64,000 nucleotides of DNA from Candidatus Nomurabacteria bacterium (GTDB taxonomy: Bacteria; Patescibacteriota; Minisyncoccia; Phycocordibacterales; UBA9973): assembly GCA_026395955.1 (NCBI GenBank), contig JAPLXR010000007.1, forward strand, positions 1,957-65,956, in the 5' to 3' direction. The translations under genes were made by a program, and so were the position numbers. The notes under the pieces are model-generated. The model was given only the letters and a program-made list of their open reading frames with translations, searched no databases and was not told the origin of the DNA. Below, one piece after another: positions 2,542 through 32,145 of this stretch; the stretch's first letter is position 1; every line of letters starts with the position of its first letter.

Positions 2542-2730
2542 ATGCCTGAACAAAAAGCCTCTATGTACGAGCTGTTTAAAAATGGTCCAAATTTTGAATT
2601 CAAAAAAATAGATTATTCTTCTCCTAAAATTACAAAAGAAGTTGAAGAACTTAAAAAACAAAAGGAAAAAATTCAAAATCAAGCCAAAGTATCCATTTGG
2701 GAACTGCAGCAAATTGTATTTACAATTTAA
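2542..2730 (+). CDS. Small hypothetical protein (62 aa)
   Basis: ORF bracketed by the pnp terminator and its own terminator; no recognisable motifs. Confidence 0.35.
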   Translation: MPEQKASMYELFKNGPNFEFKKIDYSSPKITKEVEELKKQKEKIQNQAKVSIWELQQIVFTI

Positions 2731-2732
2731 AT

Positions 2733-2765
2733 AAAATCTCATTATTATAGTGAGATTTTTTTATT
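2733..2765 (+). terminator. Intrinsic terminator
   Basis: aaaatctca / tgagatttt inverted repeat followed by a T-run. Confidence 0.6.
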
Positions 2766-2766
2766 T

Positions 2767-3678
2767 TTGGTATACTTATTGAATATGGAAGGGAATGAAT
2801 TAAATACTCCAAAACCAATTGAAATAAAAGAAGAGCCAATCCTAACTAAAAATGGAATGGTGCAGACATATGCCGAAGATATGGCAAAAGCTGCAGAAAG
2901 TTTACAGGGAATGGAATTAAAAAAACTTATCGAACGTGATGAGCAATTTGGTGAGCAAAAAGAAAACCTTTCTCCTGAATCAAAGAAGAACAAGATCTTG
3001 ATGATTATTTCTACTATTTTAATGATCGCTACTGTAACACTAGTCTTTTTGGTATATAAAAAAAGTAATACTATAGTCAGTATACCTGTAATACAACAAA
3101 ACAAATCAATAATTTATACAGATAAAACTCAGTTCCTATCTATCGATGGATTAAACAAAGATCAAATAATTCAAACAATTAAAAATGAAGTTTCTTCTAC
3201 AGACGTAAAAAGTGGAGGGATAGAGAGTATTTATCTAACTGAAAACAAACAAGTTATTGGTTTTAATAGATTTACAACACTACTCAATCTAAATATTCCG
3301 AACGAAGTTTCAAGTTACACAAATGACAATTTCCTTATAGGAGCATACAACGGTTCTACTAAATCATTCTTTATATTATTGAAAGTAAAATCATTTACAG
3401 ATATTTTCCCTGGATTTAAGTTATGGGAAAATAAAATGTTTAGTGATTTATATAATCTTTTTGGTATAAATTTAAATACCGACAATCAAGACTTGTTAAC
3501 AAAAGATTTTGCTGACAGTATTTTAAATAACAAAAATGCTCGTACTTTATATGACAAAGACAATAATCCTATTTTAGAATATGTATATGCTAGTGATACT
3601 TCTGTAGTGATAATTGCAAACAACGAAACAGCTCGTGAAATAATGACTAGACTTTCTGTAAATCCTCTTGGGAATTAA
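2767..3678 (+). CDS. Hypothetical single-pass membrane protein (start may be the Met at 2785)
   Basis: 303-aa ORF with one hydrophobic helix (ILMIISTILMIATVTLVFLVY) and a non-repetitive C-terminal domain. Confidence 0.55.
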   Translation: MVYLLNMEGNELNTPKPIEIKEEPILTKNGMVQTYAEDMAKAAESLQGMELKKLIERDEQFGEQKENLSPESKKNKILMIISTILMIATVTLVFLVYKKSNTIVSIPVIQQNKSIIYTDKTQFLSIDGLNKDQIIQTIKNEVSSTDVKSGGIESIYLTENKQVIGFNRFTTLLNLNIPNEVSSYTNDNFLIGAYNGSTKSFFILLKVKSFTDIFPGFKLWENKMFSDLYNLFGINLNTDNQDLLTKDFADSILNNKNARTLYDKDNNPILEYVYASDTSVVIIANNETAREIMTRLSVNPLGN

Positions 3679-7708: not shown

Positions 7709-8779
7709 TTATTGAGCCCAAGAGTTATCAAAGCCTGGATTCCATCCACCACGTACTTCGAAATGAAGGTGAGGACCAGTAGAGTGACCAGTAGAACCCA
7801 CATAACCGATTATTTGTCCTTGATAAACACTGTCTCCAATAGACACATTTAATTTTGTTTGGTGCGCATAATATGTTTGCATACCATTTGGGTGTTGGAT
7901 AATAACCAAGTTACCATAACCACCATTTTTTCCATAACGAGCAAAGATAACTTTACCTTTTGCTGCAGCCTTGATAGGTGTGCCTATAACATGACAACTC
8001 ATATCTACAGCATATTTATCATGTCTTCCTTGAGTAAGTCCACAAGGGATTGGTTTAATGAAATATCCAGCTGAAGATTTCATATTTGTATTCTTGTTCC
8101 AAGGTAAACTACCACCTTGTTTAATACTACCTGATTGAGAAGATGCTGTGTTTGGAATGTCTGCACCTGGAATAACAAGTTGATCTCCAATATTTAGGTT
8201 TACATCTATAGAAATATCATTAAAAGAAGTTATATCTTCAACGTCTACATTGTATATTTTAGCTATTATTTTCAATGTTTGACCTTTTGTCACTACATGA
8301 ACAACCCCAGAAACAGGAGGTATAAGCAAAGTATCTCCTTCAGTCAAAGGTGCACCTCTCTTTAAATCGTTAGCCCATATTATGGTATTAGAAGAAACAC
8401 CAAACATTTTAGCTATACCAGCCAAAGAATCTCCTTTTCTAATTACGTACACACTTATTTGATCGGCAGAAGCATCTGCTTCATCTGAACTAGTACCCAT
8501 AGCACTAGTAGCAGGTAATAGAGCACTATCTGAAAGAATATTAACATCCTCAGTAGAAGTGACGTCTTTTGAAACTACAGCCAAAGGAGAAACATTCGCC
8601 TGAAGAGCTGTATTTTGAATAGTATTATCAACAATAGTGGCATTATCAGCAGAAGCAGAAGAGCCTAAAAATAGATCTGAGACAAAATTAGCTTTTGCAG
8701 AAAAAGGTGCAAAAAAGACCCCAAACACTAAGAAAAGGGCTAAAATTGAAAATACTGTTTTAAATTGAGGTTTTTTCAT
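7709..8779 (-). CDS. Secreted M23-family peptidase with two LysM domains
   Basis: Signal peptide; LysM repeats (YVIRKGDSLAGIAKMFGVS..., HVVTKGQTLKIIAKIYNV...); M23 motifs HxxxD and GSTGHSTGPHLHFE. Confidence 0.85.
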   Translation of the reverse strand: MKKPQFKTVFSILALFLVFGVFFAPFSAKANFVSDLFLGSSASADNATIVDNTIQNTALQANVSPLAVVSKDVTSTEDVNILSDSALLPATSAMGTSSDEADASADQISVYVIRKGDSLAGIAKMFGVSSNTIIWANDLKRGAPLTEGDTLLIPPVSGVVHVVTKGQTLKIIAKIYNVDVEDITSFNDISIDVNLNIGDQLVIPGADIPNTASSQSGSIKQGGSLPWNKNTNMKSSAGYFIKPIPCGLTQGRHDKYAVDMSCHVIGTPIKAAAKGKVIFARYGKNGGYGNLVIIQHPNGMQTYYAHQTKLNVSIGDSVYQGQIIGYVGSTGHSTGPHLHFEVRGGWNPGFDNSWAQ

Positions 8780-8866
8780 AAATTATGACTGAGTATCGGT
8801 ATTTCGGACAGGTCTTTCGTTCATCTGTAGCGGTATATATTAAGGGTACCTCTTTGGATGTCGATA

Positions 8867-8897
8867 GTCAATGGGGGTGTGGAAAACACCCATTGAC
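8867..8897. promoter_or_regulatory. Strong hairpin/inverted repeat overlapping the -35 of the downstream promoter (candidate operator)
   Basis: gtcaatggg / cccattgac 9-bp perfect arms with an inner 2-bp extension; the 3' arm contains TTGACA. Confidence 0.35.
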
Positions 8898-8921
8898 AAA
8901 ACTAAATAAAAGGTATATAAT
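8893..8921 (+). promoter_or_regulatory. Consensus sigma70-type promoter (TTGACA-17-TATAAT) for the 8989 gene
   Basis: TTGACA 8893-8898, 17-nt spacer, TATAAT 8916-8921. Confidence 0.6.
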
Positions 8922-8988
8922 ATATAGGTATAAAAGCTCAAAAAATTAGGTATTATCAGACAAACGTTTTATAATATAAATATAAAAA

Positions 8989-9840
8989 ATGACAATTGGA
9001 ACCTTATTTAAAACAGAAAGAGTAAACACAAAACCTGCTACAGCAAAAACTGCAGGAGTAGAAGAGGTACAAAATGACCCTATTGAGAAACTCAAGAAAG
9101 AATGGGGTGCAAATAACACAAATTCAAATAAAGACAAGAAAAAGAACAGTATTAAGAATGAAAGTCTACCCTCAAATATAAAGGAGGAGTTGCTAATACA
9201 ACAAAGAGAAAGGGAGGAGAAAGAAAAAATAAATAATACATTATTGAATGATTTTGGATATCCTAGTGAAGCATTAAGGACGCTTTCAATTAATCAGAAA
9301 AAGGCTATGTTTTTAGCAAAAACAACATATGCTGATTTTCTAGCTGAAAAAAGAGCTAAAATGGTAGAGGAGATTAATATGACACCTGAGCAACTTCATA
9401 ATACTAACAAAATTCAAGCTTCGGTCAGAAGAACAAATGAACAAGCAAAGGCTTTTGAAGAAAATAAAAAGAGTGGTAAAAAGATAAAAACAACTGAAGA
9501 AAAAGTAGATAATTTAATAGGGGCTATGTTTCCAAAACTTGAATTAATAAAACAATTACCAGATGAAGATGTAGAAGAATGGAGAGAGTACTATCAAGGA
9601 CGACTAAAAAATGAAAATATAAGCAATGAAGCAAAAGAAAGATATTTAAAAAAATTAAAAGTAATTAGAGAATACAAAGAATTCCTTAACGAAGTAGATA
9701 CTTCAAAAACAATTACTAATAAAAAAGGAGAGAAAGAAATATTAGAAATACTTACAAGTAAAATCGAAGCTAAAAGAACAGAAGAGAGAGAGGACAGAAG
9801 AAAAAAAGGTTTATTAAAAGATATAAAAATAAAACAATAA
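8989..9840 (+). CDS. Hypothetical Lys/Glu-rich soluble protein (283 aa)
   Basis: ORF with upstream consensus promoter; charged, coiled-coil-like composition; no TM segment. Confidence 0.55.
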   Translation: MTIGTLFKTERVNTKPATAKTAGVEEVQNDPIEKLKKEWGANNTNSNKDKKKNSIKNESLPSNIKEELLIQQREREEKEKINNTLLNDFGYPSEALRTLSINQKKAMFLAKTTYADFLAEKRAKMVEEINMTPEQLHNTNKIQASVRRTNEQAKAFEENKKSGKKIKTTEEKVDNLIGAMFPKLELIKQLPDEDVEEWREYYQGRLKNENISNEAKERYLKKLKVIREYKEFLNEVDTSKTITNKKGEKEILEILTSKIEAKRTEEREDRRKKGLLKDIKIKQ

Positions 9841-9844
9841 AATT

Positions 9845-12800
9845 ATGTCAGAACAACCACCAAAAGTTCGCACAAAAGAAGAGATACAGAAAGAACTAGA
9901 TGATCTTGAATTAAATCCTGAAAAACTAAAAGCTGAAGATTTTGATAAAAAAACCAGTGCGCTAGAAAAAGAATTAAAACAAGCAAATAATCTTTCTAAA
10001 AAAGAAAAAAATAATAGGAAAGACAAAGAGCCTAAATACGCTAGAGGTACGAGAATTTGGAACACTGGTTCAAATAACAAAGAAAACAAAGGAGCCTATG
10101 AAATATTGGAAACTCCTTCAAAAGAAAATGGTTATATGTATCTTTTAAACAAAGAAGGTACATCAATAATGGAACCTATTACTGAAGCAGATTTGATAGA
10201 TGCTTTAAATTCTTCATCTGGAATAATTAGAAAAGAAGAAGAAAAACCTAAAACAAAAAAGACTCCAAATTCAAAAAAGAATGAAAATAAAAAAACTACA
10301 GTAGTAGAAAATAAAATTCTAGAAAAAGTAACAAAAGGTAGAAATGTTTGGTTTAACGACAAAGCAAATGGTGGTAATTATATTGTAAATGAAACTCCAG
10401 CTGAAAATAAAGACAAAAAATATGTCTTGAAAAAAGAAAGTGGTGGAGGTAATTTCAGAGTTTCTGCACAAGAACTAGAAAAACTACTAAAGGATGAAAA
10501 AGTACAAGTAGTTTTAAAAGATGGGGAATATGAATTTAAAAAACCAGAAGTAAAAAATATAGTTGCTCCTGCAGTTGTAAAATCTCCGACAGTACCAGCT
10601 ACACCAACAAAAACACCTGATACAAAAAATAAAATTAAAACTCCAGAAGATGCAAAGAAAGAGTACTGGGATTTTATTCGTAAGGCTGTAGATTTAATCA
10701 AGGCAAATGGTTTAGACAGGGTTGTTATTCATGGAGATGAAACTAAAAATAAAGATAAATTAGAAAAATGGAATAGTGGATATACAGAAGAAAAACACAA
10801 AGAGCAAGGCCCTATTCTAGATATTTCTCCTGACTTAGACACAAGAGGTGCACTACTTTTCTTGAACAAAATTCAAGAAGCAAATTCTAATATATTTAAA
10901 AAAGGAGCCTTTATAGAAACAATTCCAAAGGGCACAGAACAGACTTTTACCAAAACAAAAAACAAAGGAAACGAACTTGTACTATATATGGATGTCGGAG
11001 GTAAAAATCCAAGTGTAGAAATAGGAGGTAAAAAAATAAATATATTTGCAGACCATCACGGAACAGAAGGTGGTTTTACAACTTCTGCAACTCAAATAAT
11101 GAAAGACATAGCAGTAACAGGAGGTCTTTCATTAGGCAACAAAGAAGAAACAGAATTTTTAAATAAAACATCTAGCTTTATAGCAAAGTTTGATAACTTG
11201 GCATATTTAGATGATAAAAAAGACAAAAGAGATCCTAAAAGTGAAAGGTTAGTAGATGAAAAATATTTACGAAATACTTTTCCTAGAAGTTTGTATTCAC
11301 TTGCAAAGTTCTTACCATTTGAAACAACCCTAGAAATACTAGGTAATAACGAAAAATTTGAAGATGGTAAAAAAATAGTTGATTGGAAAAATCCATTTCT
11401 AAAAGATGGAAAACCTCGTGATTGGGCAAATACTTTTACTGATGATGAAATAGAAAAAGGAGATATTGGAAAGATCGTTATTGATTATAAAAACCCAATA
11501 AATGGTGAAATAACCAAAATGACTGTAAAAGAGTTGGTTAAAAAAAACAAAGGAGATATAAACTACACAATAAAAGGTGAAGAAACAGCATTAAAAAACC
11601 AAGGTAAAAATACAGAGAGTTCAACTCTAGGTAAATTTGTATTTCATAACTTTGCAGACAATGGAAAAGGCAAAACAAATACAATACCAAAACACATGGC
11701 ATACCTTACATCTCGTGCACTTGGATATGATGCTTTTGTTTCTTACAACCCAGAAAGTGGAGCGATATTTATAAATTCAGATGGAAAGAAAGATCTAATG
11801 CCTGTTTGGGAAAAACTTAATGCAATAATTCCAGGATATCCAAAACCAGTCCGTAATCAAATGATGTTTGCACCGAAAGATCCAGAAATGATGAAAAAGA
11901 TGAAAGACATTTCACAAGAAAAACTTCTTGAGATTTTAGGAGCAAGAGAAAGTAAAGAAAAAGAAATTATTTCTGATAAAGAATATACTGACTTTGTAGA
12001 TAAAAATAAAGTATCTACATCTAGACTAGAAAGTCTTGCAGATAAAGTAATAGCTAGACACCAACTTTCAACAAGAGAACAAGCTATATTCAATGGAAAA
12101 ACTTCTGAAATAAATAAAATTATTGAAGAAAGATCTAAACAAGATAAAAAAGAAAACAAAACTGCTGACTTAAAGAAAGACATCAATAAAAAAATTGACG
12201 ATAAAGACAAGAAGAAGGATGACAAAACAGCGGGACCAACAGCGGAAGATTTAGAAAAACAAAAGAGAGAGAAAGCTGATTTAATGCAAGCTGTTATTTC
12301 TGCACGAGAAGAATTATTTGCTGCAAAAAATTCACCAGAAGGATTCTTTACTAAATTCAAAGCAAAGTGGGCAGGAAAGGCTAGTGAAAAAGAAAAGAGT
12401 ACAACAGAAAAAGAAAAAGCTTACTTCTCTGCCAAAAAAGCATATATAGAAAAATTACCAGCAGGAAGTCCTGAAATAAATATTTTTATACTTTCTGAAA
12501 TGGAAATAGTGAAAGCTAGAAAAATAGAAAACCTTCCACTTTCTGAAAGAATTAAAAATGGAATTTCAAAAGGAATAAAATGGTGGGAAGAAATAGGTAC
12601 AAATCCAGATGATAGTACACTAAAACGTTTTGGTAAAAAGACAGCAAAAGCTCTAGTAGCTATAGGTATTATCGGTGGAGCATCAGCTGCAGCAGTTAGT
12701 GGACTTGCAGCAGTAGGAATAGGTAGCGCTAGTGCACTCGGAGCAGGAGCTACATCATACTTGGGTAGAAAAATGCTTATGTCAGTAGGAATGAGTAGTG

Positions 12801-14152
12801 CAATGTCAATAATGCCACCAGGTGCAAAATCTCTCTTTGCAAAAGTAGTGCCAATGTTCAGTGTTGCTGGTGCATTAGGATATGGAGCTTCAAAAGCTGC
12901 ACAATTTGCAACAAACAAATGGCTCGGCGAAGAATCAATAACCAATAGTTTAAATGCACGCATAGATGCGTTAAAAAATTCAAAAAATGAAACTGAATCT
13001 TTAGATTCAAAATTAAAGAGAATGGAAAAGGAGTATGCAGAAATACATAAATCTGCAGAGAATAAAAGATTCGGAAGAAGACTTATGGGTGGAGTAGTTG
13101 CTCTAGGTACAAGTATCGCTTTCTTAGAATACGGTGGTCATAAAATAGATCAACACAATCTAGAGACACAAACTCATGCAGTACCAGAAAAACATCCAGA
13201 AATAATACACAAAGAAGCACCAGTGGAACAAAATCATGGAATAAATACTAAAGTAGAATTCAGTTCTAATGGAGCTATAGCAACACTTGATAATTTGAAA
13301 GGTGAGTTGAATAAACAATACCATGGAGATTTTTCTCATGCACCAAAAAGTGTTCAAGAATTTATGAATACAAATTCTACTCAAGCTGCTATAAACTTAG
13401 GAATGTTTCATCCGAATGATCCTACAGGAAATGAAAGTATGATGATTATGAGAGGTTCAACTATTAGCTTCGATGAACATGGTAATTTGTCTTATCATGA
13501 CATACAAAAAAATATTGATCATACTCTAATAGAAGGAGATAAAAATTCTGTAGAACAATACCATGGAAACATGTTTCATGCAGGTAATAGTGATCAACAA
13601 ACACACAATTACGATGAAAATTTGAAACCAGTAAGACCAGTAATGAGTTTTGAACATAACATGATAAATGAAACAAATGATGTAAATCATTCTGAAGTTC
13701 CAATAGCAGAAAAAAACATGACATATACAGAAGAAGCGGAAAAAGAAAATGCGGACAATAATGTAAATGTGAATGAAAATAGTAATACAGAAAATAATAA
13801 TTCAAATGAAAATACAGAAACAACACAAGTTGAACATTTCGGTTTACATGCAGACAAATTAGCAGAAGTATTTACCGTTCACGATGAAAATATTAACAAA
13901 CTTTTTGAAGACCAGAAAGTATGGGATAGTGTAAGTTATAGACCAGCAAATTTCTTCATAGAACAATCAGCAGAAGATATGAATGACACTTATAAACCTT
14001 TTATAGAACACATTCAAGATTTGCATGAAAAAAGTGGACTAGAGCCTAGAGCCTCAACAATATTAATGCCAGCAGAAACAGCAGATCAATATATAGAACG
14101 TGCCTTAGAGAAAATCGCATCAGAAGATAAATTAGAAGAAGTTAAACTTTAA
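9845..14152 (+). CDS. Giant protein (1435 aa): K-rich N-terminus, DHH-like phosphoesterase motifs, coiled coils, glycine-zipper TM block, His-rich C-terminus
   Basis: VVIHGD...ISPDLDTRGA...IFADHHGTEGG (DHH-family-like motifs, ~10700-11110); GxxxG/AxxxA hydrophobic block ~12650-12950. Confidence 0.6.
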   Translation: MSEQPPKVRTKEEIQKELDDLELNPEKLKAEDFDKKTSALEKELKQANNLSKKEKNNRKDKEPKYARGTRIWNTGSNNKENKGAYEILETPSKENGYMYLLNKEGTSIMEPITEADLIDALNSSSGIIRKEEEKPKTKKTPNSKKNENKKTTVVENKILEKVTKGRNVWFNDKANGGNYIVNETPAENKDKKYVLKKESGGGNFRVSAQELEKLLKDEKVQVVLKDGEYEFKKPEVKNIVAPAVVKSPTVPATPTKTPDTKNKIKTPEDAKKEYWDFIRKAVDLIKANGLDRVVIHGDETKNKDKLEKWNSGYTEEKHKEQGPILDISPDLDTRGALLFLNKIQEANSNIFKKGAFIETIPKGTEQTFTKTKNKGNELVLYMDVGGKNPSVEIGGKKINIFADHHGTEGGFTTSATQIMKDIAVTGGLSLGNKEETEFLNKTSSFIAKFDNLAYLDDKKDKRDPKSERLVDEKYLRNTFPRSLYSLAKFLPFETTLEILGNNEKFEDGKKIVDWKNPFLKDGKPRDWANTFTDDEIEKGDIGKIVIDYKNPINGEITKMTVKELVKKNKGDINYTIKGEETALKNQGKNTESSTLGKFVFHNFADNGKGKTNTIPKHMAYLTSRALGYDAFVSYNPESGAIFINSDGKKDLMPVWEKLNAIIPGYPKPVRNQMMFAPKDPEMMKKMKDISQEKLLEILGARESKEKEIISDKEYTDFVDKNKVSTSRLESLADKVIARHQLSTREQAIFNGKTSEINKIIEERSKQDKKENKTADLKKDINKKIDDKDKKKDDKTAGPTAEDLEKQKREKADLMQAVISAREELFAAKNSPEGFFTKFKAKWAGKASEKEKSTTEKEKAYFSAKKAYIEKLPAGSPEINIFILSEMEIVKARKIENLPLSERIKNGISKGIKWWEEIGTNPDDSTLKRFGKKTAKALVAIGIIGGASAAAVSGLAAVGIGSASALGAGATSYLGRKMLMSVGMSSAMSIMPPGAKSLFAKVVPMFSVAGALGYGASKAAQFATNKWLGEESITNSLNARIDALKNSKNETESLDSKLKRMEKEYAEIHKSAENKRFGRRLMGGVVALGTSIAFLEYGGHKIDQHNLETQTHAVPEKHPEIIHKEAPVEQNHGINTKVEFSSNGAIATLDNLKGELNKQYHGDFSHAPKSVQEFMNTNSTQAAINLGMFHPNDPTGNESMMIMRGSTISFDEHGNLSYHDIQKNIDHTLIEGDKNSVEQYHGNMFHAGNSDQQTHNYDENLKPVRPVMSFEHNMINETNDVNHSEVPIAEKNMTYTEEAEKENADNNVNVNENSNTENNNSNENTETTQVEHFGLHADKLAEVFTVHDENINKLFEDQKVWDSVSYRPANFFIEQSAEDMNDTYKPFIEHIQDLHEKSGLEPRASTILMPAETADQYIERALEKIASEDKLEEVKL

Positions 14153-14175
14153 TTATTAATTAATAAAAAAATAAA

Positions 14176-14481
14176 ATGGCTACAATAAAACAAACATTAA
14201 TAGAATTGTTCGAATTAGAAAAAATGTCTCCAGAGCAGGCGACAGAGACAGCAGAGAGATTAGCAAAATTAGTAATGCAAGGAGTTTTAACTAGAGTATT
14301 ACCGACATTATCAGAAGAAGATTTACAAAAATATGAAGAAATTATAGACACATATCAAAGCCCAGAAGTATTGTTTGATTTCTTAAACTCTAAAGTTGTA
14401 AACTTTCAAGACATCTTAACAGAAGAAACAGAAAGTTTACATAGAGAACTTTCCGGAGAAATGTCAGCACTAACTAATTAA
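14176..14481 (+). CDS. Small hypothetical acidic protein (101 aa)
   Basis: ORF between the giant gene and a terminator. Confidence 0.45.
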   Translation: MATIKQTLIELFELEKMSPEQATETAERLAKLVMQGVLTRVLPTLSEEDLQKYEEIIDTYQSPEVLFDFLNSKVVNFQDILTEETESLHRELSGEMSALTN

Positions 14482-14493
14482 AATAAATATTTA

Positions 14494-14530
14494 AAAAACA
14501 TTCTGAAATAAAATTCAGAATGTTTTTTAT
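14494..14530 (+). terminator. Intrinsic terminator
   Basis: aaacattctgaa / ttcagaatgttt 12-bp stem followed by TTTTTT. Confidence 0.7.
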
Positions 14531-14549
14531 TTTATGCTATATTTGAGTA

Positions 14550-16574
14550 ATGGAACATTTGAATGGCTTAAATAATTCTCAAAAAGAAGCTGCTTTACAC
14601 ACAACAGGTCCACTACTCATAGTGGCTGGGGCAGGAGCAGGGAAGACAAAAACTATAACTCATAGAATTGTTAATCTTATAAAAGAAGGCGTTTCACCAG
14701 AAAAAATATTGGCTGTGACTTTCACAAACAAATCAGCCAAGGAAATGCGTGAGAGAATAATAAATGAAATAGAGAAGAATGCAAAAGGGCAAAATAAGGT
14801 TCCTTTTGTTAGCACTTTTCACGCCCTCGGCGTACACATAATAAAAGAAAACTCACGGTTAATCGGTGTCACAAGACATTTTACTATATTAGATGAAGGG
14901 GATGCTCTATCTATAATAAAAGAAGCTCTAAAAGAAAATGATTTGGACCCAAAACAATTTGAACCGAAAAAAATAAAGAATCTAATAAGCCGAGAAAAAG
15001 GTAAATTTACTAAAATGGAAGATTATTTTGAAAGTGCAACAGAATACCTCCCTCGTATCGTCGCTCGTGTTTGGAAAAGTTATGAAAGCAAAAAAGCAAA
15101 AGAAAATGCACTTGATTTCGATGATCTACTTTCAAAAGCTACACTACTGTTAAAAGAAAACAAGGAAGTTAGAAAAATGTACCAAGATCGCTGGAGTCAT
15201 ATACATATAGATGAGTATCAGGATACAAACGAAGCTCAATACGTAATGAGTAAATTACTATCTGAAAATCATAAAAATATATGTGTTGTCGGAGATGCTG
15301 ATCAAAATATTTATTCTTGGCGTGGAGCAAATTTAAAAAATATTTTATCTTTTGAAAAAGATTATCCAGATGCAAAAATAGTTTTGCTTGAAGAAAATTA
15401 CCGTTCAACACAAAATATACTAGAAGCAGCAAATACAATAATAAAGAAAAACAAATATCGTCCTGATAAAAATCTATTTACATCAAACCCTGTCGGTGAA
15501 AAAATTTCTGTCTATGAAGCACTCGAGGAAACTGAAGAGGCTGATTTTATAGCTACAAAAATTTTAGAAATTGTAGATGGTTCCGACAGTAATAAAATTT
15601 TTGATCCTGCGCCCTTCTTTGGGCGCAATTCTGGGGACAAAGTGGGATCCTTGGATACAAAAATTTCATCACTGTCTCCACAATTTAGCGACATAGCTAT
15701 TTTATACCGTGCGAATTTTCAATCACGCGTACTCGAAGAAGCAATGCTAAGGTACAATATTCCATATCAAGTTTTGGGAGTAAAATTCTTCGAGAGAAAA
15801 GAAATAAAAGACACACTCGCATATCTACGCGCAGCGATGAATCCTGAAAGTTTATCTGATATAAAAAGAATTATAAATTTCCCAGCACGAGGGATAGGCA
15901 AAGTTACTCTCGCAAAAATATTTGTAAAAGAAACATCTGACTTACCAATAAAAATGCAAATTAAAATAAAAAACTTCTATGAACTACTAGAAGAAATAAA
16001 AGCAAACATAGAACACAACACGGTATCAGAAGTTATAAAATTCGTAATTAAAAAAACAGGAATAGAAGAAGAATTGAAAAATGGGGGAGATGAAGAAATG
16101 GAAAGATTAGCAAACATAAAAGAACTCGCAACTCTCGCTCTCAAATATGAGAATCTAGAAAATGGACTAGGAGTAGAAAAACTTATCGAAGACGCATCTC
16201 TCGCCTCTGATCAAGATTCAATAATGATCACGGAAGAAAAACCTGAAAAAGTAAATGCTGTAAAACTCATGACTGTCCATGCTTCAAAAGGACTTGAGTT
16301 TAAATATGTTTTCGTCACAGGACTCGAAGAAGGACTTTTTCCAAGCCAGCGTGATACTGAAAGTAAATCAGCAGAAGATAGTGAGGAAGAACGCAGGCTT
16401 TTCTATGTAGCCATAACTCGTGCACGTGAAAAATTATTTTTATCTTTTGCAAATTTCCGTACTATATTCGGAGAGAGAAGAATCAATTCGCCATCACAAT
16501 TCATATCAGATATTCCAGGAGATATAATAGAGAAGGGAGGTGAGAATCAAAATGTAAAAACAATATATATTTAG
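14550..16574 (+). CDS. uvrD: UvrD/PcrA-family ATP-dependent DNA helicase
   Basis: Starts LNNSQKEAA...; Walker A AGAGAGKTKT; helicase motifs DEYQDTN, VGDADQNIY, TVHASKGLEF, VAITRAR. Confidence 0.9.
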   Translation: MEHLNGLNNSQKEAALHTTGPLLIVAGAGAGKTKTITHRIVNLIKEGVSPEKILAVTFTNKSAKEMRERIINEIEKNAKGQNKVPFVSTFHALGVHIIKENSRLIGVTRHFTILDEGDALSIIKEALKENDLDPKQFEPKKIKNLISREKGKFTKMEDYFESATEYLPRIVARVWKSYESKKAKENALDFDDLLSKATLLLKENKEVRKMYQDRWSHIHIDEYQDTNEAQYVMSKLLSENHKNICVVGDADQNIYSWRGANLKNILSFEKDYPDAKIVLLEENYRSTQNILEAANTIIKKNKYRPDKNLFTSNPVGEKISVYEALEETEEADFIATKILEIVDGSDSNKIFDPAPFFGRNSGDKVGSLDTKISSLSPQFSDIAILYRANFQSRVLEEAMLRYNIPYQVLGVKFFERKEIKDTLAYLRAAMNPESLSDIKRIINFPARGIGKVTLAKIFVKETSDLPIKMQIKIKNFYELLEEIKANIEHNTVSEVIKFVIKKTGIEEELKNGGDEEMERLANIKELATLALKYENLENGLGVEKLIEDASLASDQDSIMITEEKPEKVNAVKLMTVHASKGLEFKYVFVTGLEEGLFPSQRDTESKSAEDSEEERRLFYVAITRAREKLFLSFANFRTIFGERRINSPSQFISDIPGDIIEKGGENQNVKTIYI

Positions 16575-16617
16575 TCCTCACCACTTCTAGCGATAGCAAA
16601 GAGTGGTGAGTAAAATT

Positions 16618-17487
16618 ATGAAAACAATACAACACAAAGCAAAAAAATCATTAGGGCAAAACTTTTTAAAATCAGTACCAGCACTGCATGCTATTGTGAA
16701 TGCAGGTGAAATAAAAGATACTGATACTATTTTAGAAATTGGTCCTGGTAAAGGTGCCCTCACAGAGAAACTTTTAGAAGTCGCAGGTACTGTTATCGCA
16801 ATAGAAAAAGATCGCGACTTGTTAGAATTTTTACAAACAAAATTTTCTAAAAAAATTACAGAAGGTAAATTTATTTTAATAAATGGAGATGTGCTAGAAG
16901 TGGAGGATAGTATTGTAAAAAACCTTGGTAGGAGCGACGGCGACGGACAGAGAAAATCTTTAGCAAAAGATTTTCGTGTTTTCGAAAATGCTATCCTCCA
17001 CGGAGGATATAAAATAATTGCAAATATTCCATACAACATTACTGGAGCGATTTTGAAAAAGTTCCTTACTGCAGAAAATCAACCAGAAAGAATGGTATTA
17101 ATGGTGCAAAATGAAGTAGCAAAGAGAATAGTCGCTCGTGATGGAAGTGAAAGTATTTTATCTATCTCAGTCAAAGCATATGGAAATCCAAAAATAATTA
17201 TGAAAGTTCCTGCACGATATTTTTCTCCAGCACCAAAAGTTGATTCTGCAATTATAGCTATCACAGAAATAAATAGAAATAATTTTAAAAATAAAAACTT
17301 AGAGGAAAAATTCTGGGAACTGGTAAAGACTGGTTTTGCACATAAAAGAAAAATACTACTAAGTAATCTCAAAGAACTTGCTAGGCAAGACCTAGCAAGT
17401 ATATTTGTGAATTTAAAAATACCAGAAAAAGCTCGAGCTGAAAATTTAAAACCAGTAGACTGGCTAGAAATTGCTAAAAAATTATAA
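16618..17487 (+). CDS. rsmA: 16S rRNA (adenine1518/1519-N6)-dimethyltransferase RsmA/KsgA, with a ~27-aa insertion
   Basis: KKSLGQNFL start, SAM motif LEIGPGKGALT, NIPYNIT motif; ORF-table start 16603 shortened to Met 16618. Confidence 0.85.
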   Translation: MKTIQHKAKKSLGQNFLKSVPALHAIVNAGEIKDTDTILEIGPGKGALTEKLLEVAGTVIAIEKDRDLLEFLQTKFSKKITEGKFILINGDVLEVEDSIVKNLGRSDGDGQRKSLAKDFRVFENAILHGGYKIIANIPYNITGAILKKFLTAENQPERMVLMVQNEVAKRIVARDGSESILSISVKAYGNPKIIMKVPARYFSPAPKVDSAIIAITEINRNNFKNKNLEEKFWELVKTGFAHKRKILLSNLKELARQDLASIFVNLKIPEKARAENLKPVDWLEIAKKL

Positions 17488-17507
17488 CTTTATGTTATAA
17501 TTTATAT

Positions 17508-17900
17508 ATGCAAAAAATGGCAAAAAAAGACTGGACTAAACTTTCTATACTAATAGTACTAATAGTCTCATTTGAAATAGCTCATGCATCTAGTGGTCAA
17601 TTTTTTGCTGGTAGAATAACTCAAGCTCCTGATCAAGAAGTACAATCTTTAGCAGACTCTGATTATACTTGTGAACCAGAAAATACGACCATAGATATTC
17701 AATCATTTAAAGGTCCAACAGCTTACTATATACCACAAGGCACAGAATCAAAAACAAAAAACCAACAAAAAGATGGTCAATTAGTAATAGGACGTTATAG
17801 TGGCACAACAACGATAACATGCACAGAAGACACTGAACCTTACGATGTACAAACATTTCAATTTAACACGATAGATATGTGGGCAAATTCAAAACAATAA
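17508..17900 (+). CDS. Small secreted protein (130 aa, signal peptide); first gene of the surface/T4SS-like island
   Basis: N-terminal hydrophobic signal ending AHA-SS; -10 TATAAT immediately upstream. Confidence 0.5.
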   Translation: MQKMAKKDWTKLSILIVLIVSFEIAHASSGQFFAGRITQAPDQEVQSLADSDYTCEPENTTIDIQSFKGPTAYYIPQGTESKTKNQQKDGQLVIGRYSGTTTITCTEDTEPYDVQTFQFNTIDMWANSKQ

Positions 17901-18883
17901 TGTTAAATAAAATAATAAATAGTAAATATATGCCTAGTAAAAAAATAAAAATAGTTTTATTTATTTTTATTTTTTTACTAGTTATTTTATTTATTTTCTT
18001 AAAATCATCAACAAAATCAAGCTTTTTTTCAAAAAAAGATAATTTAGAGGTTCAGAATTCAACAATAAATGACCTTATAGCAAAAGACACAGATGGTGAT
18101 GGTATTCCAGATTGGGAAGAGTCACTTTGGGGGACTGACAAAAACAAAGTATCAACTTTTACTGGAACAGATGATAAAACATACATTGAAAACAAGAAAA
18201 AAGAACTAAGTTTGTCAAATGCAAGTAGTACAGACAATTTAACAGAAACACAAAAATTCTCTAGAGATTTCTTTACAGCTTTTATGTCTATGAAAACAGG
18301 ACAAGTAGACAATACTACAATTAATAGTTTTTCTGCTGCGTTAGGACAAAAAGTAGCAGATCCTAATCTAACAGATCAATACACTGAAAAAGATTTAAAA
18401 TTAGATGTTTCAGGAGATTTAAATAAACAAAAAAAATATTACATGAGTATACAGAGTCTTTTTGAACAATATCAACTTTCAGGATTAGGAGACGAATTAG
18501 ATATTGTTAGCCAAACATTGGCATCTGGAGATGATACAAATAAAGCAACTCAAATAATGCAATTACTTAAAATATCTGATGCTTACAAGGGTTTTGCATC
18601 TAAAATCATGGATTTAGAAGTTCCAGAAAAACTAAAAAATATACATCTAAGGATAGCAAACAGTTCAAATAACACAGGAATCAGTGTCTTAAATATGTCT
18701 AAAATAATAGGAGACCCTGTTGTTGGATTGTCCGGCCTTTCTCAATATCAAAAATATAGTAATGATTTAATAATTGCTGCTGGTGACCTAGAGACAACTC
18801 TACCAGATAATGGTAATATAGTAAGTAATACAAAAAATGTTAAAAGTAGCACCCAACAAAATTTATTAAATAGTATTCAATAA
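17900..18883 (+). CDS. Membrane-anchored protein with a DTDGDGIPDWEE calcium-binding-like motif
   Basis: TAATG stop/start coupling with the upstream ORF; N-terminal TM then a DxDGDGxxDxxE loop. Confidence 0.5.
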   Translation: MLNKIINSKYMPSKKIKIVLFIFIFLLVILFIFLKSSTKSSFFSKKDNLEVQNSTINDLIAKDTDGDGIPDWEESLWGTDKNKVSTFTGTDDKTYIENKKKELSLSNASSTDNLTETQKFSRDFFTAFMSMKTGQVDNTTINSFSAALGQKVADPNLTDQYTEKDLKLDVSGDLNKQKKYYMSIQSLFEQYQLSGLGDELDIVSQTLASGDDTNKATQIMQLLKISDAYKGFASKIMDLEVPEKLKNIHLRIANSSNNTGISVLNMSKIIGDPVVGLSGLSQYQKYSNDLIIAAGDLETTLPDNGNIVSNTKNVKSSTQQNLLNSIQ

Positions 18884-21664
18884 ATGATAAAAAAGTATTT
18901 TCAAAAAATAATCTGTTCAATTGCAATGCTAGGCATTATATTAATGCCATATTTAAGCATACCAACAACAACATATGCTTATAGTAGCCCAGTGGGAATA
19001 GAAGGGTATATAAAAACATTATCACCGCTCATATCCTCATTACCTGGATGTAAAGAAGTTTTGAAGTCAGGAATGAAAGATATGTTTTCTAAAATAAAAG
19101 GTGCTTTTAGTAGTAGTGGGAGTAGTGATACAGAAAACACAAATATTAATGATGCTGCAGACACAGACACACTAGGAGAAGAACAACAAGCCATAGAAAT
19201 ATACAACAAAGGCCTTGAAACAAATATTAAGGGAACAAAAGCATCATCAGCAGAAACAGAAAAACAAACTAGTTCTATCAATAAAAACAAAACATGTCTT
19301 GATGGAATAGGAAAAGCTGTCGCAAAAATACTTTTAAACGAAATGACAAAGAGTATGGTGGAATGGATCAACGGTGGAATGGATGGTACACCAAAATTTG
19401 TTCATGATCCTGCTGCTTTTTTTGGTGACATAGCTAAAAATGAAGTTTTACAATTTGGCCTTGAAATAAATAATCCAGCCTTATTCCCATTCGGGAAAGA
19501 TTTTATAAAAATGCAAAAAGATGCTTTTGTAAAACATTTTTCTGATAATGCAAAATATTCTCTAGACCAAGCAATCGGTGCTACAAATCCAGGTAAAACT
19601 GGTGCAGATTTTAAATTAAATTTTAGTGACGGAGGATGGGGAGCATGGACTGCAATGACACAAAATACTGCAAACAATCCTATTGGATTTAATATCGCTG
19701 CATCAAATGAACTCTCAATGAGATTAAATGGAACACAACAAACTACAGCAGATAAATATAAAGACCAGATAGCGACAGCTAACGGCTATTTAAACCAAGA
19801 ACGTTGTGCCGAAGAAGCTGTTGTAGATGACACAGATGGAAGTGTTCATTTAGAAACAAACCATGACATAACAAGAGGTGAAGACAATCAATATTTAAGA
19901 GGTGTCGAAGGTGCTCGTCATTGTGCTACATGGGAAACTGTCACTCCAGGTAAACTCATCTCGGAATCAGCAACAAAAACACTTAATTTCAGGTCTGACT
20001 CATTATTATCTGTAGGTGACTTAAATGATGCTACGGCAGCATTGATAGACGCAACCCTTAGTATGATCGCTACAAAAATCGCAGGTAGTGATGGTTTCAC
20101 AGGACTTTCAGAAGATCCGAATGGAACTTCAAATTCATTTGATTTAAATGGTGGAAGTTCTTTAGCTTCACAATCTCAAACAGATCAAGATTTCCCTGCA
20201 TCTCTTGGTGGTAGTAATTGGTTAACAGCAAATCCTGATTTCAACATCAGAACAGATATAACCCAAGCTTTGATAGATGAACAAAGAATATATATACAAA
20301 AACTACAAGACCAAAATACTGAATTAAAATCAGTGAAAAATGTTAACAATACGAATTATAACTATGGATTGTTGCCAATAATTTATCAACTTGATTATTG
20401 TATTCCAGGACCACATCCAGGATGGGAAGATGAGGCACAGAGAAATCTAGATGACGCTAAAAGTAAAATAGTTGATATTGGTGGTATGAATTTTGCACAG
20501 ATAAATAGAGCAACCGGTGTAGGTAGTTCAGCAGATTGGGATGTTATGTTCCTTGCATTTAATACTTTTGTTTTGGGAACAGGTGGAATAGCTAACTATG
20601 AAACAGTAGATAAAGCGCTTCATTTAACAGATAAATATTCATATCAATATTTAGATGGTTTTAGTCAAAAATACTTAGGGATTTCATTCACAAAAGATGG
20701 TGCTTCTGAATCGTATAAAAATACAATTGGTGCCCTTAATCAAGCTTTTGATGGATATAAACAATCAGTAAATAATGTGTTTAACACTCTTACTCTTCCA
20801 GGTGTTGCAGATCAAGCTAAAAAAGAATTTAACACTGCTACTGGTTATCAAGGAATATTTGATAAAAATACTACAGAAATAGCAGGTAAACAAGCTGATA
20901 TAAAAAGACTTGTAGATATTAAATCAGCAATAGAAAATTTGACAATTCAAAAAAATAACCAGACACTACCATTAACAATGATTGACCCTATAACAAATTC
21001 TGTTACAACAGATTATAATGCTCAATTTGAAGAAGATTTAAAGCCTTACATAAGTACTTTTGCTCGTGTATCTGCAAACATGGTTACAGGAGATGATATA
21101 GCAAAAGCAGATAATCTGTTGCAACAAATAAAAGACAAGGAAAAATATATCTATAATGACTTAATAAAAGGCCCAACTGGTTGTGAAAAAGAACTATCTA
21201 CTCAACCATGGCAAATGAAAAGATACCCTTATCCTTTACCTATAATATATGATTACAATTCAACAACAAACCCGTTACCTGATCCTTTTGGAAATGGTAT
21301 TTTCCATACAACACCAGTATTAAATCCTTCAGTTTATACTGCAAGTAGTATGCCATCTACTGCAGGAATGATATGGGTTGATTTCTCTGGTGTAAAAGAA
21401 AATCCTCCACCAAACTTACCAATGTTTGATGGAGAACAAGACCACTATAATGGACCAGGTAGCTTACAAACATTAACATCCTTCTGTCAGTATATTGCGG
21501 AAAAATCAAGACTAACTCAGCCAGGAGTAGCATATTCTTCATGTAATGAAGTGGGAAGTAACTTTACTAATATTCACATAGGAGAATTAAACTTTGATAC
21601 CGGATGGAGTCAGGGCACACAATACAATGTAACTACCCTTGAGAGAACGTTGGGGATTTATTAA
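18884..21664 (+). CDS. Large secreted protein (926 aa), unknown function
   Basis: Signal peptide (IAMLGIILMPYLSIPTTTYAYS); start abuts the upstream stop. Confidence 0.6.
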   Translation: MIKKYFQKIICSIAMLGIILMPYLSIPTTTYAYSSPVGIEGYIKTLSPLISSLPGCKEVLKSGMKDMFSKIKGAFSSSGSSDTENTNINDAADTDTLGEEQQAIEIYNKGLETNIKGTKASSAETEKQTSSINKNKTCLDGIGKAVAKILLNEMTKSMVEWINGGMDGTPKFVHDPAAFFGDIAKNEVLQFGLEINNPALFPFGKDFIKMQKDAFVKHFSDNAKYSLDQAIGATNPGKTGADFKLNFSDGGWGAWTAMTQNTANNPIGFNIAASNELSMRLNGTQQTTADKYKDQIATANGYLNQERCAEEAVVDDTDGSVHLETNHDITRGEDNQYLRGVEGARHCATWETVTPGKLISESATKTLNFRSDSLLSVGDLNDATAALIDATLSMIATKIAGSDGFTGLSEDPNGTSNSFDLNGGSSLASQSQTDQDFPASLGGSNWLTANPDFNIRTDITQALIDEQRIYIQKLQDQNTELKSVKNVNNTNYNYGLLPIIYQLDYCIPGPHPGWEDEAQRNLDDAKSKIVDIGGMNFAQINRATGVGSSADWDVMFLAFNTFVLGTGGIANYETVDKALHLTDKYSYQYLDGFSQKYLGISFTKDGASESYKNTIGALNQAFDGYKQSVNNVFNTLTLPGVADQAKKEFNTATGYQGIFDKNTTEIAGKQADIKRLVDIKSAIENLTIQKNNQTLPLTMIDPITNSVTTDYNAQFEEDLKPYISTFARVSANMVTGDDIAKADNLLQQIKDKEKYIYNDLIKGPTGCEKELSTQPWQMKRYPYPLPIIYDYNSTTNPLPDPFGNGIFHTTPVLNPSVYTASSMPSTAGMIWVDFSGVKENPPPNLPMFDGEQDHYNGPGSLQTLTSFCQYIAEKSRLTQPGVAYSSCNEVGSNFTNIHIGELNFDTGWSQGTQYNVTTLERTLGIY

Positions 21665-21701: not shown

Positions 21702-24700
21702 ATGTTACTTTTTAAGGGAGCTAAGAAAAATATTTTTGGGATATCTTTATTAATTATATTAATAATATATTTTAGTGTTCTAATTTTTTCAAAAAAAACT
21801 TCAGCTTACGCAACAGGTCCTGTTGTTCTAGGTACACAACCAGCAACAAATATAACGACAACGTCTGCGGTTTTAAATGGAATTGTTACAAATACAAGAG
21901 GAGAGATACCAACTTATATAAAGTTTATGCTTTCAACAGACCAACAGTCTTGGACTGATTTTCCTTTAAATCCAGCATATTTACTAATGGCACCAGACAC
22001 AGACGGAAATCCATACTCAATAGATACCTCTATGGCTACTTCACCTGTAAATAATTTAACTTCCAATACTCTTTATTATTATAAAGCTTGTGCCATGAAT
22101 AGTGCTGGAAGTAGCTGTAGCAATTTGCCTCTTAGAACATTTACAACATCCAATCCAAATAGTTCTGGAAACAATAACGGTTCAAGTAATACAGGCACAT
22201 CATATAACACAACGACTCAATCAACAATAAGCAATGTAATAACACACGATTTTACTAACCTTACTGACACTTCTGTAAAGTTAAATGGTGAAGGAACAGT
22301 ATCTGCTCCTGATTATGCATATTTCAGATATTCAAAAGTAGACCCAAATCCTCCTATTTTTTGTAATGATTTATATGGATCAAGTATGAGTTCAAAAAAG
22401 GCAACATTTCCAAATTCAGACGGATCATACACAAGTGCTAACAGTGGTACTATTTTTTCTACTGGAATAAATGGATTAGAACCAGACACAACATATTACT
22501 ATTGTGCAGTAGTATCAAATAGTGCAAATAGTTCTGGTTTTGGAAGACCAAATACTGAAATAAAATATGGTGGTGTAAAAACATTCAAAACAAAGTGTGG
22601 TACTACATGTACAACAATAGAAACAAAAAATCCTTCAAGCATCACAAAAGATTCTGTATATCTAAATGGATCTTTTAACTCCACACAAGCTACAAAAACT
22701 TGGTTTGAATACGAAATAGATCCGGCATCATTACCTCAAGGTAGTCCAACTCCTGTATGGCAAACAGTAAATGTTGAAAATCATACAGCGCAATCAGTGG
22801 GTAATAATAATAGAATACAATTTCAAGTTACAGGATTAACACCAAATACTTCATATATATACAAAGCAGTAGCTCAAACAGACTGGGGAACACTAGGCAA
22901 TCCAAATCCTCAAAATTATTATGGTATTGATATGAGTTTTACAACAAATCCTCCAGACTCAACACCAGATACTCCGACAGATCCAGGAACAACACAAGAT
23001 CCAAATAGTGGTTATGATAGTGGCGGACCATCATATGATAATGGAGGAGGTGCTCCTAGTGCTTGTTCTTCATTAACAATCAAACCAATAAGTAACAAAA
23101 CTATTTACGCTGGTCATAATTTATCTTTTGCTGTACACACTTGTGGAGCAAATGGAGAGACAGTAACATATCAAATAACTAACATACCACCATTAGCTAT
23201 TTTTAATTCTAATGGAATGTTTGTCTGGAATACTAATTTCAGCCAAACAGGTATTTATGATGTAACATTCGATGCGTCTACTCCATCAGGTAATAATGCA
23301 AGTCCAGTCACTGTGAGAATAACAGTGACCCCACCAAACACAAATTGTCCTTCATTAACAATTGAACCGATCGAAGATCAAGAATTTATAACTGACCAAT
23401 ATAATACTTTTTATGCAAATATCTGTGGAAATTTCGGACAACAAGTAACATACTCAATAGCTAATCTTCCAACAGGTGCAGGAATACTTCCAAATGGACT
23501 TTTTGTATGGGTTCCTACAGCTGATCAAGTAGGACAACATCAGATATTTGTTAATGCAGTTTCTGGTACACAAACAGTATCACTAACAGTTAATGTAAAC
23601 GTTACATTAACACAAAATGGACCAAACCCTAATGGTAATCCTAACGGAGATCCTAATGGTGGACCAAATGGAGGAAATACAAACAACTGTCCTAATTTTA
23701 TAATTAGACCAATAAGTGATAAACACACCCAAGCAGGATCACCTATTTCTTTTACAGCACATACATGTGGAAACCAAGGCAAACCAGTAACATATTCTAT
23801 AACTTCAACACTAATGCCTGGAGGTGCAGGAATAGGACCAGCAAATGGAAGATTTTCTTGGTCAACAGGAGGAAATCAGGCTGGTAGTTATGATATAACT
23901 ATACATGCTAAAGCACCGATAGGAGCATTAGATTTGATCACTAATACTCAAGCTATGGTTGATGCAACGCCAATAACAGTACACATAACAGTAACACCTA
24001 TACCTATCAGTTGTGGAACTTTAACAATAAATTCATTACATAATGAGCATTTCTATGTTGATCAAATAGATACTTTCAATGTAACAGTTTGTGGAAATCA
24101 TGGAGAACAAGTTACTTATTCTCCTGAGAATATACCTTCAGGTGCAACTCTTGATCCTTCAACAGGACTATTTACATGGACACCGACTTCTAGTGATTTA
24201 GGTTTACATGCAATATTAATAGGTGCAAAAACATCAACACAAAGAATGGTAACAGCATCTATGAGTATTAATGTTACAGACAGATCAGGCAATTCAAATA
24301 ACCAAGGAGACCCTAACACTGGACGTACTTGTCCAACGACATCAACTGGTGTTTGGCCAAGATGTGTAGACAATGCTACTGGTGTTGGATTTTGTGATAC
24401 AGGATCAACAGGGACTTATCCTAATTGTGTTGTTACAAATACAGGAGGTAGTGGTTCTGGAAATGGTAACAGTAATGGTGGTAATGGAACATTCGGAAAT
24501 GGAAACAATGGTAATGGAGGAAATGGAAATGGTCCAACAGTATTAGGGTCTGCAAACAATCCAGCTCCGGCTATTGGAAGCTTCTTGGTACCACCGAGTA
24601 TGGACTTGGTTCACTATCACGAAGGAGTAGAACACGTATTAACAAGACAAATAATGGGCGACATTGCTCTGGCAAAAATATATGGATATCAAGATGGCCA

Positions 24701-28573: not shown

Positions 28574-28582
28574 TAAAATTAT

Positions 28583-29236: not shown

Positions 29237-29270
29237 TACTGTTATAATATAACAAGTTAAATAAATATAT

Positions 29271-32144: not shown

Positions 32145-32145
32145 T

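Follow-up and report, generated by a model that had tools for sequence, protein, structure and literature searches.

What does a bacterial cell gain from a 1435-residue protein in which a DHH-like phosphoesterase motif set is combined with a membrane block? The question is raised by a giant gene at positions 9845 to 14152 of a 64,000-nucleotide stretch of DNA, here called the window (W), from Candidatus Nomurabacteria (GenBank assembly GCA_026395955.1, contig JAPLXR010000007.1); features lie on the forward strand unless stated otherwise. The open reading frame (ORF), noted in a first-pass annotation made from the letters alone, is present as claimed. It has an ATG start and its product is identical to NTW62_02160, a ‘hypothetical protein’ from a metagenome-assembled genome (MAG) of Candidatus Nomurabacteria at NCBI. 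Across 9845–14152 the protein comprises N-terminal repeats, a DHH/DHHA1-like core, a Lys/Glu-rich linker, a membrane block and an acidic, His-rich C-terminal region. The same fused layout is found in independent assemblies (P0002–P0004, P0017, P0021, P0027, P0038, P0044 and P0074–P0076, where P numbers denote family proteins and L numbers, below, denote loci). We consider it probable that the giant is a membrane-tethered DHH-type phosphoesterase which faces the cytoplasm and likely acts on a short nucleic acid or nucleotide.

The conserved core, the sole part of the giant that can be recognised as an enzyme, spans residues 265 to 705 (10637–11959) and was delineated by family search, AlphaFold2 (AF2) and Foldseek as a DHH catalytic lobe, an insert of about 140 residues and a DHHA1-like lobe. 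Word-indexed homologue searches gave three to six relatives per query and were dominated by low-complexity words; the family was revealed by an exhaustive search of representatives. With the core as query, the exhaustive HMMER search identified at least 109 clusters (at 50% identity) with E ≤ 1e-3 and 85 with E ≤ 1e-10. Members range from fragments of 101 residues to proteins of 1589 residues and share a core of about 400 residues. The source names seen were solely Nomurabacteria, Pacebacteria and ‘Patescibacteria group’, and the family is so far confined to records named as Patescibacteria (Candidate Phyla Radiation, CPR). Its genes carry the annotation ‘hypothetical’ in those Patescibacteria MAGs that were seen.

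Motif conservation was assessed across 72 full-length cores, 25–45% identical to the query, that were aligned with MAFFT. The motifs quoted in the first-pass annotation, VVIHGD (10721–10738), ISPDLDTRGA and IFADHHGTEGG, were located as described and their conservation is far above chance; two further DHH motifs, II and IV, had not been listed. Motif I (ISPDLDTRGA, 10823–10852) contains D330 (96% conserved) and D332 (100%) and sits directly before helix 67–82 of the model. Motif II (LVLYMDVGG, 10976–11002) places D383 (99%) at the end of model strand 113–118. Motif III (IFADHHGTEGG, 11042–11074), with D403, H404 and H405 at 99% each, ends model strand 133–138 and is followed by the conserved pair T413–S414. 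Motif IV (FDNLAY, 11189–11206) lies at the end of model helix 169–186, with D450, N451 and Y454 conserved at 97, 99 and 96%. The median spacings are 50 residues from motif I to II, 20 from II to III and 42 from III to IV. The core thus displays the features that mark the DHH superfamily, namely the DxD of motif I, the strand-end Asp of motif II, the Asp-His-His of motif III and the Asp of motif IV. In this superfamily the DHH motif and adjacent acidic residues bind two metal ions (PMC9779919). Each of D330, D332, D383, D403, H404, H405 and D450 is 96–100% conserved and all seven occur together in 68 of the 72 cores. Since these residues are retained in proteins otherwise so divergent, we conclude that selection appears to maintain the catalytic site.

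The AF2 model of the core, computed with 30 family sequences, has a pLDDT of 89.1 and a pTM of 0.88 and positions the motifs at the ends of strands and helices in an alpha/beta lobe. When the model was compared with the PDB using Foldseek, the six best matches were all DHH proteins. The best was RecJ-Cdc45 (7bih, E 4.9e-4, probability 0.99), followed by RecJ2 (7yik and 7ykv) and Staphylococcus aureus NrnA/Pde2 (8iu7); 5ghr appeared at rank 8. The matches to RecJ-Cdc45, RecJ2, NrnA and NrnB have probabilities of 0.93–0.99 with TM-scores overall of just 0.31–0.37, and the full-length alignments to NrnA and RecJ cover both lobes. In a viral structure library the top matches were NrnB of phage AR9 and DHH phosphohydrolases of giant viruses (probability 0.93–0.99). 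The C lobe alone matches the C-terminal domain of AlaRS (2zvf and 3wqy) weakly, with E values of 0.2–1.4 and probabilities of 0.1–0.5; AlaRS is known to have a DHHA1 domain but to lack a DHH domain (PMC9779919).

Comparison of the family profile with PDB sequences gave 6mtz_A at E 8.9e-4 over the pattern DHH...TSAT...W...vD, in which motif III pairs with lDHH, and the RecJ-type 5ghr_A at E 1.2. The entry 6mtz_A (‘HepC.19480.a.B1’, 355 residues, from structural genomics) is the best sequence-profile match and shares with the family the DHH, a (T/C)-A-T helix and W-L...V-x-x-V-D through to motif IV. The aligned segment is nevertheless about 50 residues, the entry is absent from the Foldseek matches and no publication on it was found. 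Using hhalign, Escherichia coli RecJ (E 0.11) aligned in register, motif II with LIVTVDNG and motif III with IVTDHH. The first-pass reading of a DHH domain therefore stands for residues ~290–455, on the predicted fold and the family-wide conservation of four motifs; the structural comparison retrieved DHH proteins as top matches, and the libraries of hidden Markov models (HMMs) gave none. We conclude that the core, as modelled, is probably a genuine, very divergent DHH/DHHA1-type enzyme. The fold also admits an inert scaffold, like eukaryotic Cdc45, serving as a protein-interaction module of a membrane complex. The top structural match is of RecJ-Cdc45 type, and the large insertions and long low-complexity extensions would suit such a role, but the retention of seven metal-binding and catalytic residues in 68 of 72 divergent cores makes it scarcely credible.

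If the catalytic lobe is conventional, the remainder of the core is not. About 30 residues separate a conserved His-Gly (residues 296–297) from the DxD of motif I, and about 140 residues (~455–595) lie between the lobes, where canonical DHH–DHHA1 members have a short linker. The second lobe has near-invariant residues of its own: G596, N612, G627-x-D629, N644-S645, P663-G664 and R670-G671. The last two pairs form the signature P663-G664...V-R670-(G/N)671-x-M (11831–11869; P663 92%, R670 97%, G671 81%). From its position in the chain, the (V/I)-R670-(G/N) element appears to take the region of the GGGH motif, described as common to all DHH–DHHA1 proteins (PMC9779919). Neither GGGH nor the NrnA-type RxRxR motif, which in NrnA binds the substrate backbone and 5′ phosphate (PMC9779919), was found in any of the 72 cores. 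The label ‘nuclease’ given in the first-pass annotation is therefore not supported.

The closest known enzymes in overall plan are NrnA, NrnB and Pde2 (8iu7; Bacillus subtilis NrnA). They share with the core, as modelled, the two lobes, DHH motifs I to IV and a beta/alpha second lobe, are among the best structural matches and, like most members of the new family, are soluble, cytoplasmic and stand-alone. The new family differs from them in having no Pfam DHH or DHHA1 match and neither GGGH nor RxRxR, in the insert of ~30 residues before motif I and the ~140-residue region between the lobes, and in N- and C-terminal extensions that are variable and Lys/Glu-rich. As the canonical second-lobe motifs are replaced, the substrate is not transferable from NrnA, GdpP or RecJ, and the specificity of the core is expected to differ from that of all three. 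A short nucleic acid or a (cyclic) di- or oligonucleotide is the most likely class. We note that substrate specificity of DHH–DHHA1 proteins cannot yet be read from sequence (PMC9779919).

The missing backbone motifs would also be consistent with a phosphatase whose substrate is not a nucleic acid but pyrophosphate, polyphosphate or some other phosphorylated metabolite, comparable to family II pyrophosphatase, PPX1 or Prune, with the second lobe in the role of DHHA2. One near-invariant Arg together with Lys and Asn residues dominates that lobe, and enzymes of this kind do belong to the DHH superfamily (PMC9779919). The Foldseek matches, however, are to RecJ, NrnA, NrnB and the AlaRS C-terminal (DHHA1) domain and include no family II pyrophosphatase or PPX1. 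Locus L003 also carries a family I pyrophosphatase gene near the core gene, so that this function is already covered there. We consider a phosphatase of this type unlikely.

Beyond the core, the first-pass annotation had described a glycine-zipper membrane block. A Gly/Ala/Ser-rich hydrophobic block is present at residues 936–1020 (12650–12904), where hydropathy and composition suggest two or three membrane-spanning or re-entrant segments. Kyte–Doolittle peaks fall at residues 936–973 (1.95) and 993–1016 (1.37), and Gly, Ala and Ser make up 54% of the block against 20% of the protein. The zipper periodicity did not hold up: the block has 23 small-xxx-small pairs, against 23.4 ± 2.4 when its residues are shuffled, and one strict GxxxG, and the Pfam glycine-zipper models have no match in the giant. 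A charged helical segment follows (residues 1021–1078; 12905–13078; 12 Lys/Arg and 10 Asp/Glu) that ends in KRFGRR and is putatively cytoplasmic. The last predicted transmembrane (TM) helix is formed by residues 1079–1098 (RLMGGVVALGTSIAFLEYGG; 13079–13138; hydropathy 1.28). Long helices are predicted at low confidence across residues 900–1105.

The C-terminal region (residues 1101–1435; 13145–14149) is acidic, with a net charge of −36 to −37, and would lie outside the cell. It bears out the description as His-rich, with 6.3% His (21 of 335 residues) compared with 0.8% elsewhere in the giant. Two conserved sub-domains (residues ~1144–1234 and ~1334–1435) are separated by an Asn/Glu-rich spacer. 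The region is retained in 12 other family proteins and in part of the separate protein L007_901, and its net charge is −20 to −49 in all nine aligned homologues. A LysM-like assignment of residues ~1144–1234 was dropped, given a poor AF2 model and no Foldseek match. At the other end of the protein a short repeat occurs twice (residues ~64–104 and ~161–200, within 10034–10489; blastp 37% identity over 41 residues, E 9e-8), with the pattern K..G..(I/V)W...N.G.Y.(I/V).ETP......Y(L/V)L.KE. It is kept only in P0002 and P0003, the two closest homologues. The remark that the protein is Lys-rich was also accurate: Lys accounts for 18% of residues 1–264 and likewise of residues 706–930.

On which side of the membrane would the enzyme work? 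The N-terminus is hydrophilic, and free of any signal or TM segment, in all 111 family proteins, and 96 of them lack TM-like segments altogether; in long family members the membrane elements begin about 230 residues past the core. Given the lack of a signal peptide and the solubility of most relatives, the core is most likely a cytoplasmic enzyme that is tethered to the membrane in a minority of the family. In nine homologues the 15 residues before the last TM helix contain four to eight Lys/Arg and the 15 after it none to three, which by the positive-inside rule suggests an in-to-out orientation. From hydropathy and charge we infer that the C-terminus lies outside and the DHH core inside.

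The first-pass annotation had suggested a surface or membrane-tethered DHH nuclease that could scavenge nucleotides or oligonucleotides, or a contact-dependent effector; a secreted enzyme would belong with this reading. Patescibacteria are generally described as nucleotide auxotrophs, the giant is membrane-associated with a large region predicted outside, and genes resembling a type IV secretion system (T4SS) are found 14 kb downstream. The membrane association stands; surface exposure of the enzyme is not supported, as every hydrophobic segment comes after the DHH core in the chain, export signals are lacking and the relatives are mostly soluble. What is predicted to lie outside is the C-terminal region, and DHH motifs are absent from it. 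As for an effector, PADLOC and PHROGs models gave no match to the giant, its neighbours or five homologues, and tblastn of phage records gave no match. No recognisable immunity gene lies alongside, and in every locus the gene keeps a fixed place in the chromosome, flanked by housekeeping genes. Either version of a surface role is very improbable.

To place the giant in context we compared 18 loci, counting W; L009 is a duplicate of L001, and in L002 the same gene comes from a second assembly. A pattern scan of metagenomes with a subgroup alignment gave eight loci, broader alignments being too diverse for such scans; a scan of genome contigs yielded no loci beyond two already known. The membrane block is homologous to the products of separate genes, L004_764 (E 1e-25) and L007_901. 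The membrane module is fused to the core in W, L001/L009, L008, L017 and several other clusters. In L004 and L012 the module with its C-terminal region is encoded by a separate gene that immediately follows the core gene. In L005, L007 and L013/L014 a few genes separate it from the core, and L003 and L011 lack it. This recurrent fusion and fission indicates that the membrane module is a functional partner of the core, and the evidence for such a partnership is good. The C-terminal extensions are swapped freely even between close relatives in the core family. In P0005 (554 residues, N-terminally truncated, on a 1970-nucleotide contig) the core is 62% identical and the C-terminal extension is different and not membrane-associated.

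The order of genes across the loci is comM ... LysM-M23 (opposite strand), then an optional DUF5663 gene, the core, an optional membrane module and DUF5663, followed by uvrD, ksgA and three unannotated genes. A LysM and peptidase M23 gene (in the window at 7709–8779, reverse strand; Pfam Peptidase_M23 2.1e-30, LysM 6.6e-21) directly precedes the core gene or cluster, in divergent orientation, in 16 of the 18 loci, counting W; L015 and L016, the two exceptions, are short fragments that do not extend far enough upstream. A promoter-like TTGACA-17-TATAAT at 8893–8921, matching the sigma-70 consensus at 12 of 12 positions, is the sole 12/12 match within 8600–17600. It lies 68 nt upstream of an ORF for a Lys/Glu-rich protein of 283 residues (8989–9840), the first gene of a putative three-gene unit, which ends 4 nt before the ATG of the giant. 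The last gene of the putative unit encodes an acidic 101-residue protein (14176–14481) of the DUF5663 family, 23 nt beyond the giant. Downstream of it, between the DUF5663 gene and uvrD, a 16-bp hairpin with A/T runs on either side (14492–14529; RNAfold −17.2 kcal/mol) resembles a bidirectional terminator. In L004 (−18.5 kcal/mol) and L007 (−42.8 kcal/mol) this position also holds a hairpin, though of unrelated sequence, and none was found there in L012 or L017. From this arrangement the 283-residue gene, the giant and the DUF5663 gene are probably co-transcribed.

Both flanking ORFs had been reported in the first-pass annotation as possibly linked to the giant, and both are present. For the upstream gene the link extends to the closest relatives and no further: homologues occur only in L001 (46% identity), L002, L008 and L009, and the protein has no family match in Pfam, NCBIfam, PHROGs or PADLOC. 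The link to the downstream gene is borne out more widely. DUF5663 genes occur in the cluster in 10 of the 18 loci, distant ones among them (named loci are W, L001, L002, L004, L007, L008, L009, L012 and L017), and in the window the gene shares the promoter-to-hairpin interval with the giant. The window copy itself matches PF18908 weakly (E 0.0015; 19.5 bits, below the cut-off of 23.7), and precomputed PF18908 matches exist for homologues of it in L001 (90% identical), L004 and L007. L007 has a single copy upstream rather than downstream of the cluster, and the metagenome locus L017 has two, one on either side (2727–3044 and 11731–12036).

The constant presence of uvrD raises the possibility that the core is a RecJ-like exonuclease for single-stranded DNA, active in repair or recombination with the neighbouring UvrD/PcrA-type helicase and replacing canonical RecJ in the lineage. 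The best structural matches are of RecJ type (7bih and 7yik), and wherever a locus extends far enough, uvrD is found downstream of the cluster. In L003 and L011, where neither the membrane module nor DUF5663 is present, uvrD is the next gene after the core (gaps of 3 and 30 nt), and comM lies upstream in W, L001, L006, L007, L008 and L018. RecJ, archaeal RecJ-Cdc45/GAN and RecJ2 (7bih, 7yik and 5ghr) align over both lobes and, like the core, have extra insertions inside the DHH–DHHA1 frame. Identity to these proteins is nevertheless 8–10%, the family profile reaches them at E of about 1, and no OB-fold or CID-type domain was identified in the giant. Pfam and NCBIfam gave no OB-fold or DNA-binding domain, and a fold-level search for a cryptic OB fold was not made. 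No RecJ is known to have a membrane-fused architecture, the Lys/Glu-rich sequence that follows the core is of low complexity, and a membrane tether with an external domain would suit a repair nuclease poorly.

The genomic evidence points the same way. Synteny runs on through unrelated housekeeping genes (ksgA and the three unannotated genes), as expected of gene order in the clade and not of an operon. An extended −10-like element, TGCTATA(T/G)(T/A), stands just before uvrD in nearly all loci (W, 14514–14543; L001, L007, L008, L011 and L012), which suggests that uvrD has its own independent promoter. Set against the RecJ-like reading are this TGCTATAnT element in most loci and the hairpin that separates the cluster from uvrD in W, L001, L004, L007 and L008. 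Together they make conserved gene order the more likely explanation of the uvrD adjacency, rather than an operon. We regard a repair exonuclease as improbable.

We return to the membrane-tethered, cytoplasm-facing phosphoesterase. With the complete metal-binding set retained (DxD, D, DHH, D), hydrolysis of a phosphoester or phosphoanhydride bond would be expected, and it would take place in the cleft between the lobes. In the window genome the core would be joined through the Lys/Glu-rich linker to the membrane module, whose hydrophobic block, charged cytoplasmic helix and final TM helix would project the acidic, His-rich region of ~335 residues to the outside. The logic would resemble that of GdpP, the membrane-anchored c-di-AMP phosphodiesterase of Firmicutes, as a phosphoesterase tethered at the membrane; the architecture is not homologous. 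Both have a DHH/DHHA1-type unit that, in the giant, would likewise sit at the cytoplasmic face. GdpP, however, has the order TM-TM-PAS-GGDEF-DHH-DHHA1, and in the giant this is reversed, with the DHH core N-terminal and the TM block and the ~335-residue external region C-terminal. Pfam detected neither PAS nor GGDEF in the giant, whose N-terminus is hydrophilic, and some genomes encode the membrane module as a gene of its own. GdpP is linked to cell-wall physiology, which parallels the LysM-M23 peptidoglycan hydrolase gene beside the core cluster. A more ambitious version of the tethered enzyme would be a device for transmembrane signalling or coupling, an ‘inverted GdpP’ of independent origin. 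In it the outer His-rich domain would sense the cell wall or host contact and control, from across the membrane, a cytoplasmic DHH phosphodiesterase with an altered substrate lobe, which would break down nanoRNA or a nucleotide messenger, and DUF5663 would be an accessory subunit; we give this a small chance. Among the 43 ORFs of the window scanned against Pfam there was no canonical DHH protein and no diadenylate cyclase.

Several observations weigh against the tethered phosphoesterase. PF01368, PF02272 and the other Pfam and NCBIfam models gave no domain match, at E ≤ 10, to the giant, the isolated core or five homologues, and single-sequence PDB searches with the whole protein or the DHH lobe gave no match. 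The DHH domain is very divergent and is overlooked by standard domain libraries. GGGH is absent from every core aligned, although it is described as general to DHH–DHHA1 proteins, and without it the second lobe may bind something unexpected. The AF2 model of residues 900–1435 (nine sequences) is poor, with a pLDDT of 48.7 and with 60–83 and 65–91 in the two sub-domains; Foldseek returned no fold match for it (best E 5.6). How many spans residues 936–1020 form is uncertain; were the total even, the C-terminus would be inside. No experimental data on any family member were found in the literature. Nor did the literature yield anything relevant on DUF5663, DHH proteins in Patescibacteria, RecJ in CPR or 6MTZ.

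The surroundings of the locus are those of a Patescibacteria chromosome segment, and the window carries pnp, comM, uvrD, ksgA, dnaA/dnaN, ruvABC and polA. A phage tape-measure-like reading of the giant was rejected on the negative phage-record tblastn and PHROGs searches and the housekeeping synteny. After ksgA come three successive genes without a family match (130, 334 and 926 residues; 17508–21664), whose synteny is kept in L001, L003, L007, L008 and L017, and then a protein of 1077 residues with He_PIG, fn3 and purple-acid-phosphatase-N domains (21702–24935). Transposase genes of the Y1_Tnp (IS200/IS605) type interrupt the syntenic block at differing points (276–902 in L001 and 9303–9977 in L003, the latter between uvrD and ksgA). 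The T4SS-like set at 28148–33981 includes a PrgI-family protein (28148–28573), a VirB4/TraG P-loop ATPase (29271–31109) and a 616-residue protein that joins a T4SS_pilin domain to NlpC/P60 (32131–33981), with unannotated genes between these members. Further on, dnaA and dnaN (37493–40203) adjoin the GC minimum of the window (0.245 at 38–40 kb), which makes this stretch the probable replication origin region; upstream of it, the opposite strand carries yidC and an R3H/Jag-like gene.

The fold and chemistry proposed here are known. The clade, its altered second lobe, the insertions and the fusion to a membrane module are undescribed in the literature found. DHH–DHHA1 enzymes govern nanoRNA turnover, cyclic-dinucleotide signalling and DNA repair, and here a compact conserved clade has been missed entirely by current domain libraries. 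Its members keep the catalytic machinery with the canonical substrate-binding motifs replaced, and could reveal a new specificity. The gene has a fixed site by a peptidoglycan hydrolase gene. The repeated fusion and splitting of the membrane module suggests a connection, open to test, of the envelope with nucleotide metabolism in these minimal-genome organisms. Should the family turn out to be the nanoRNase or cyclic-dinucleotide phosphodiesterase of these bacteria, an annotation gap would be filled; otherwise it would represent a new branch of a well-studied superfamily.

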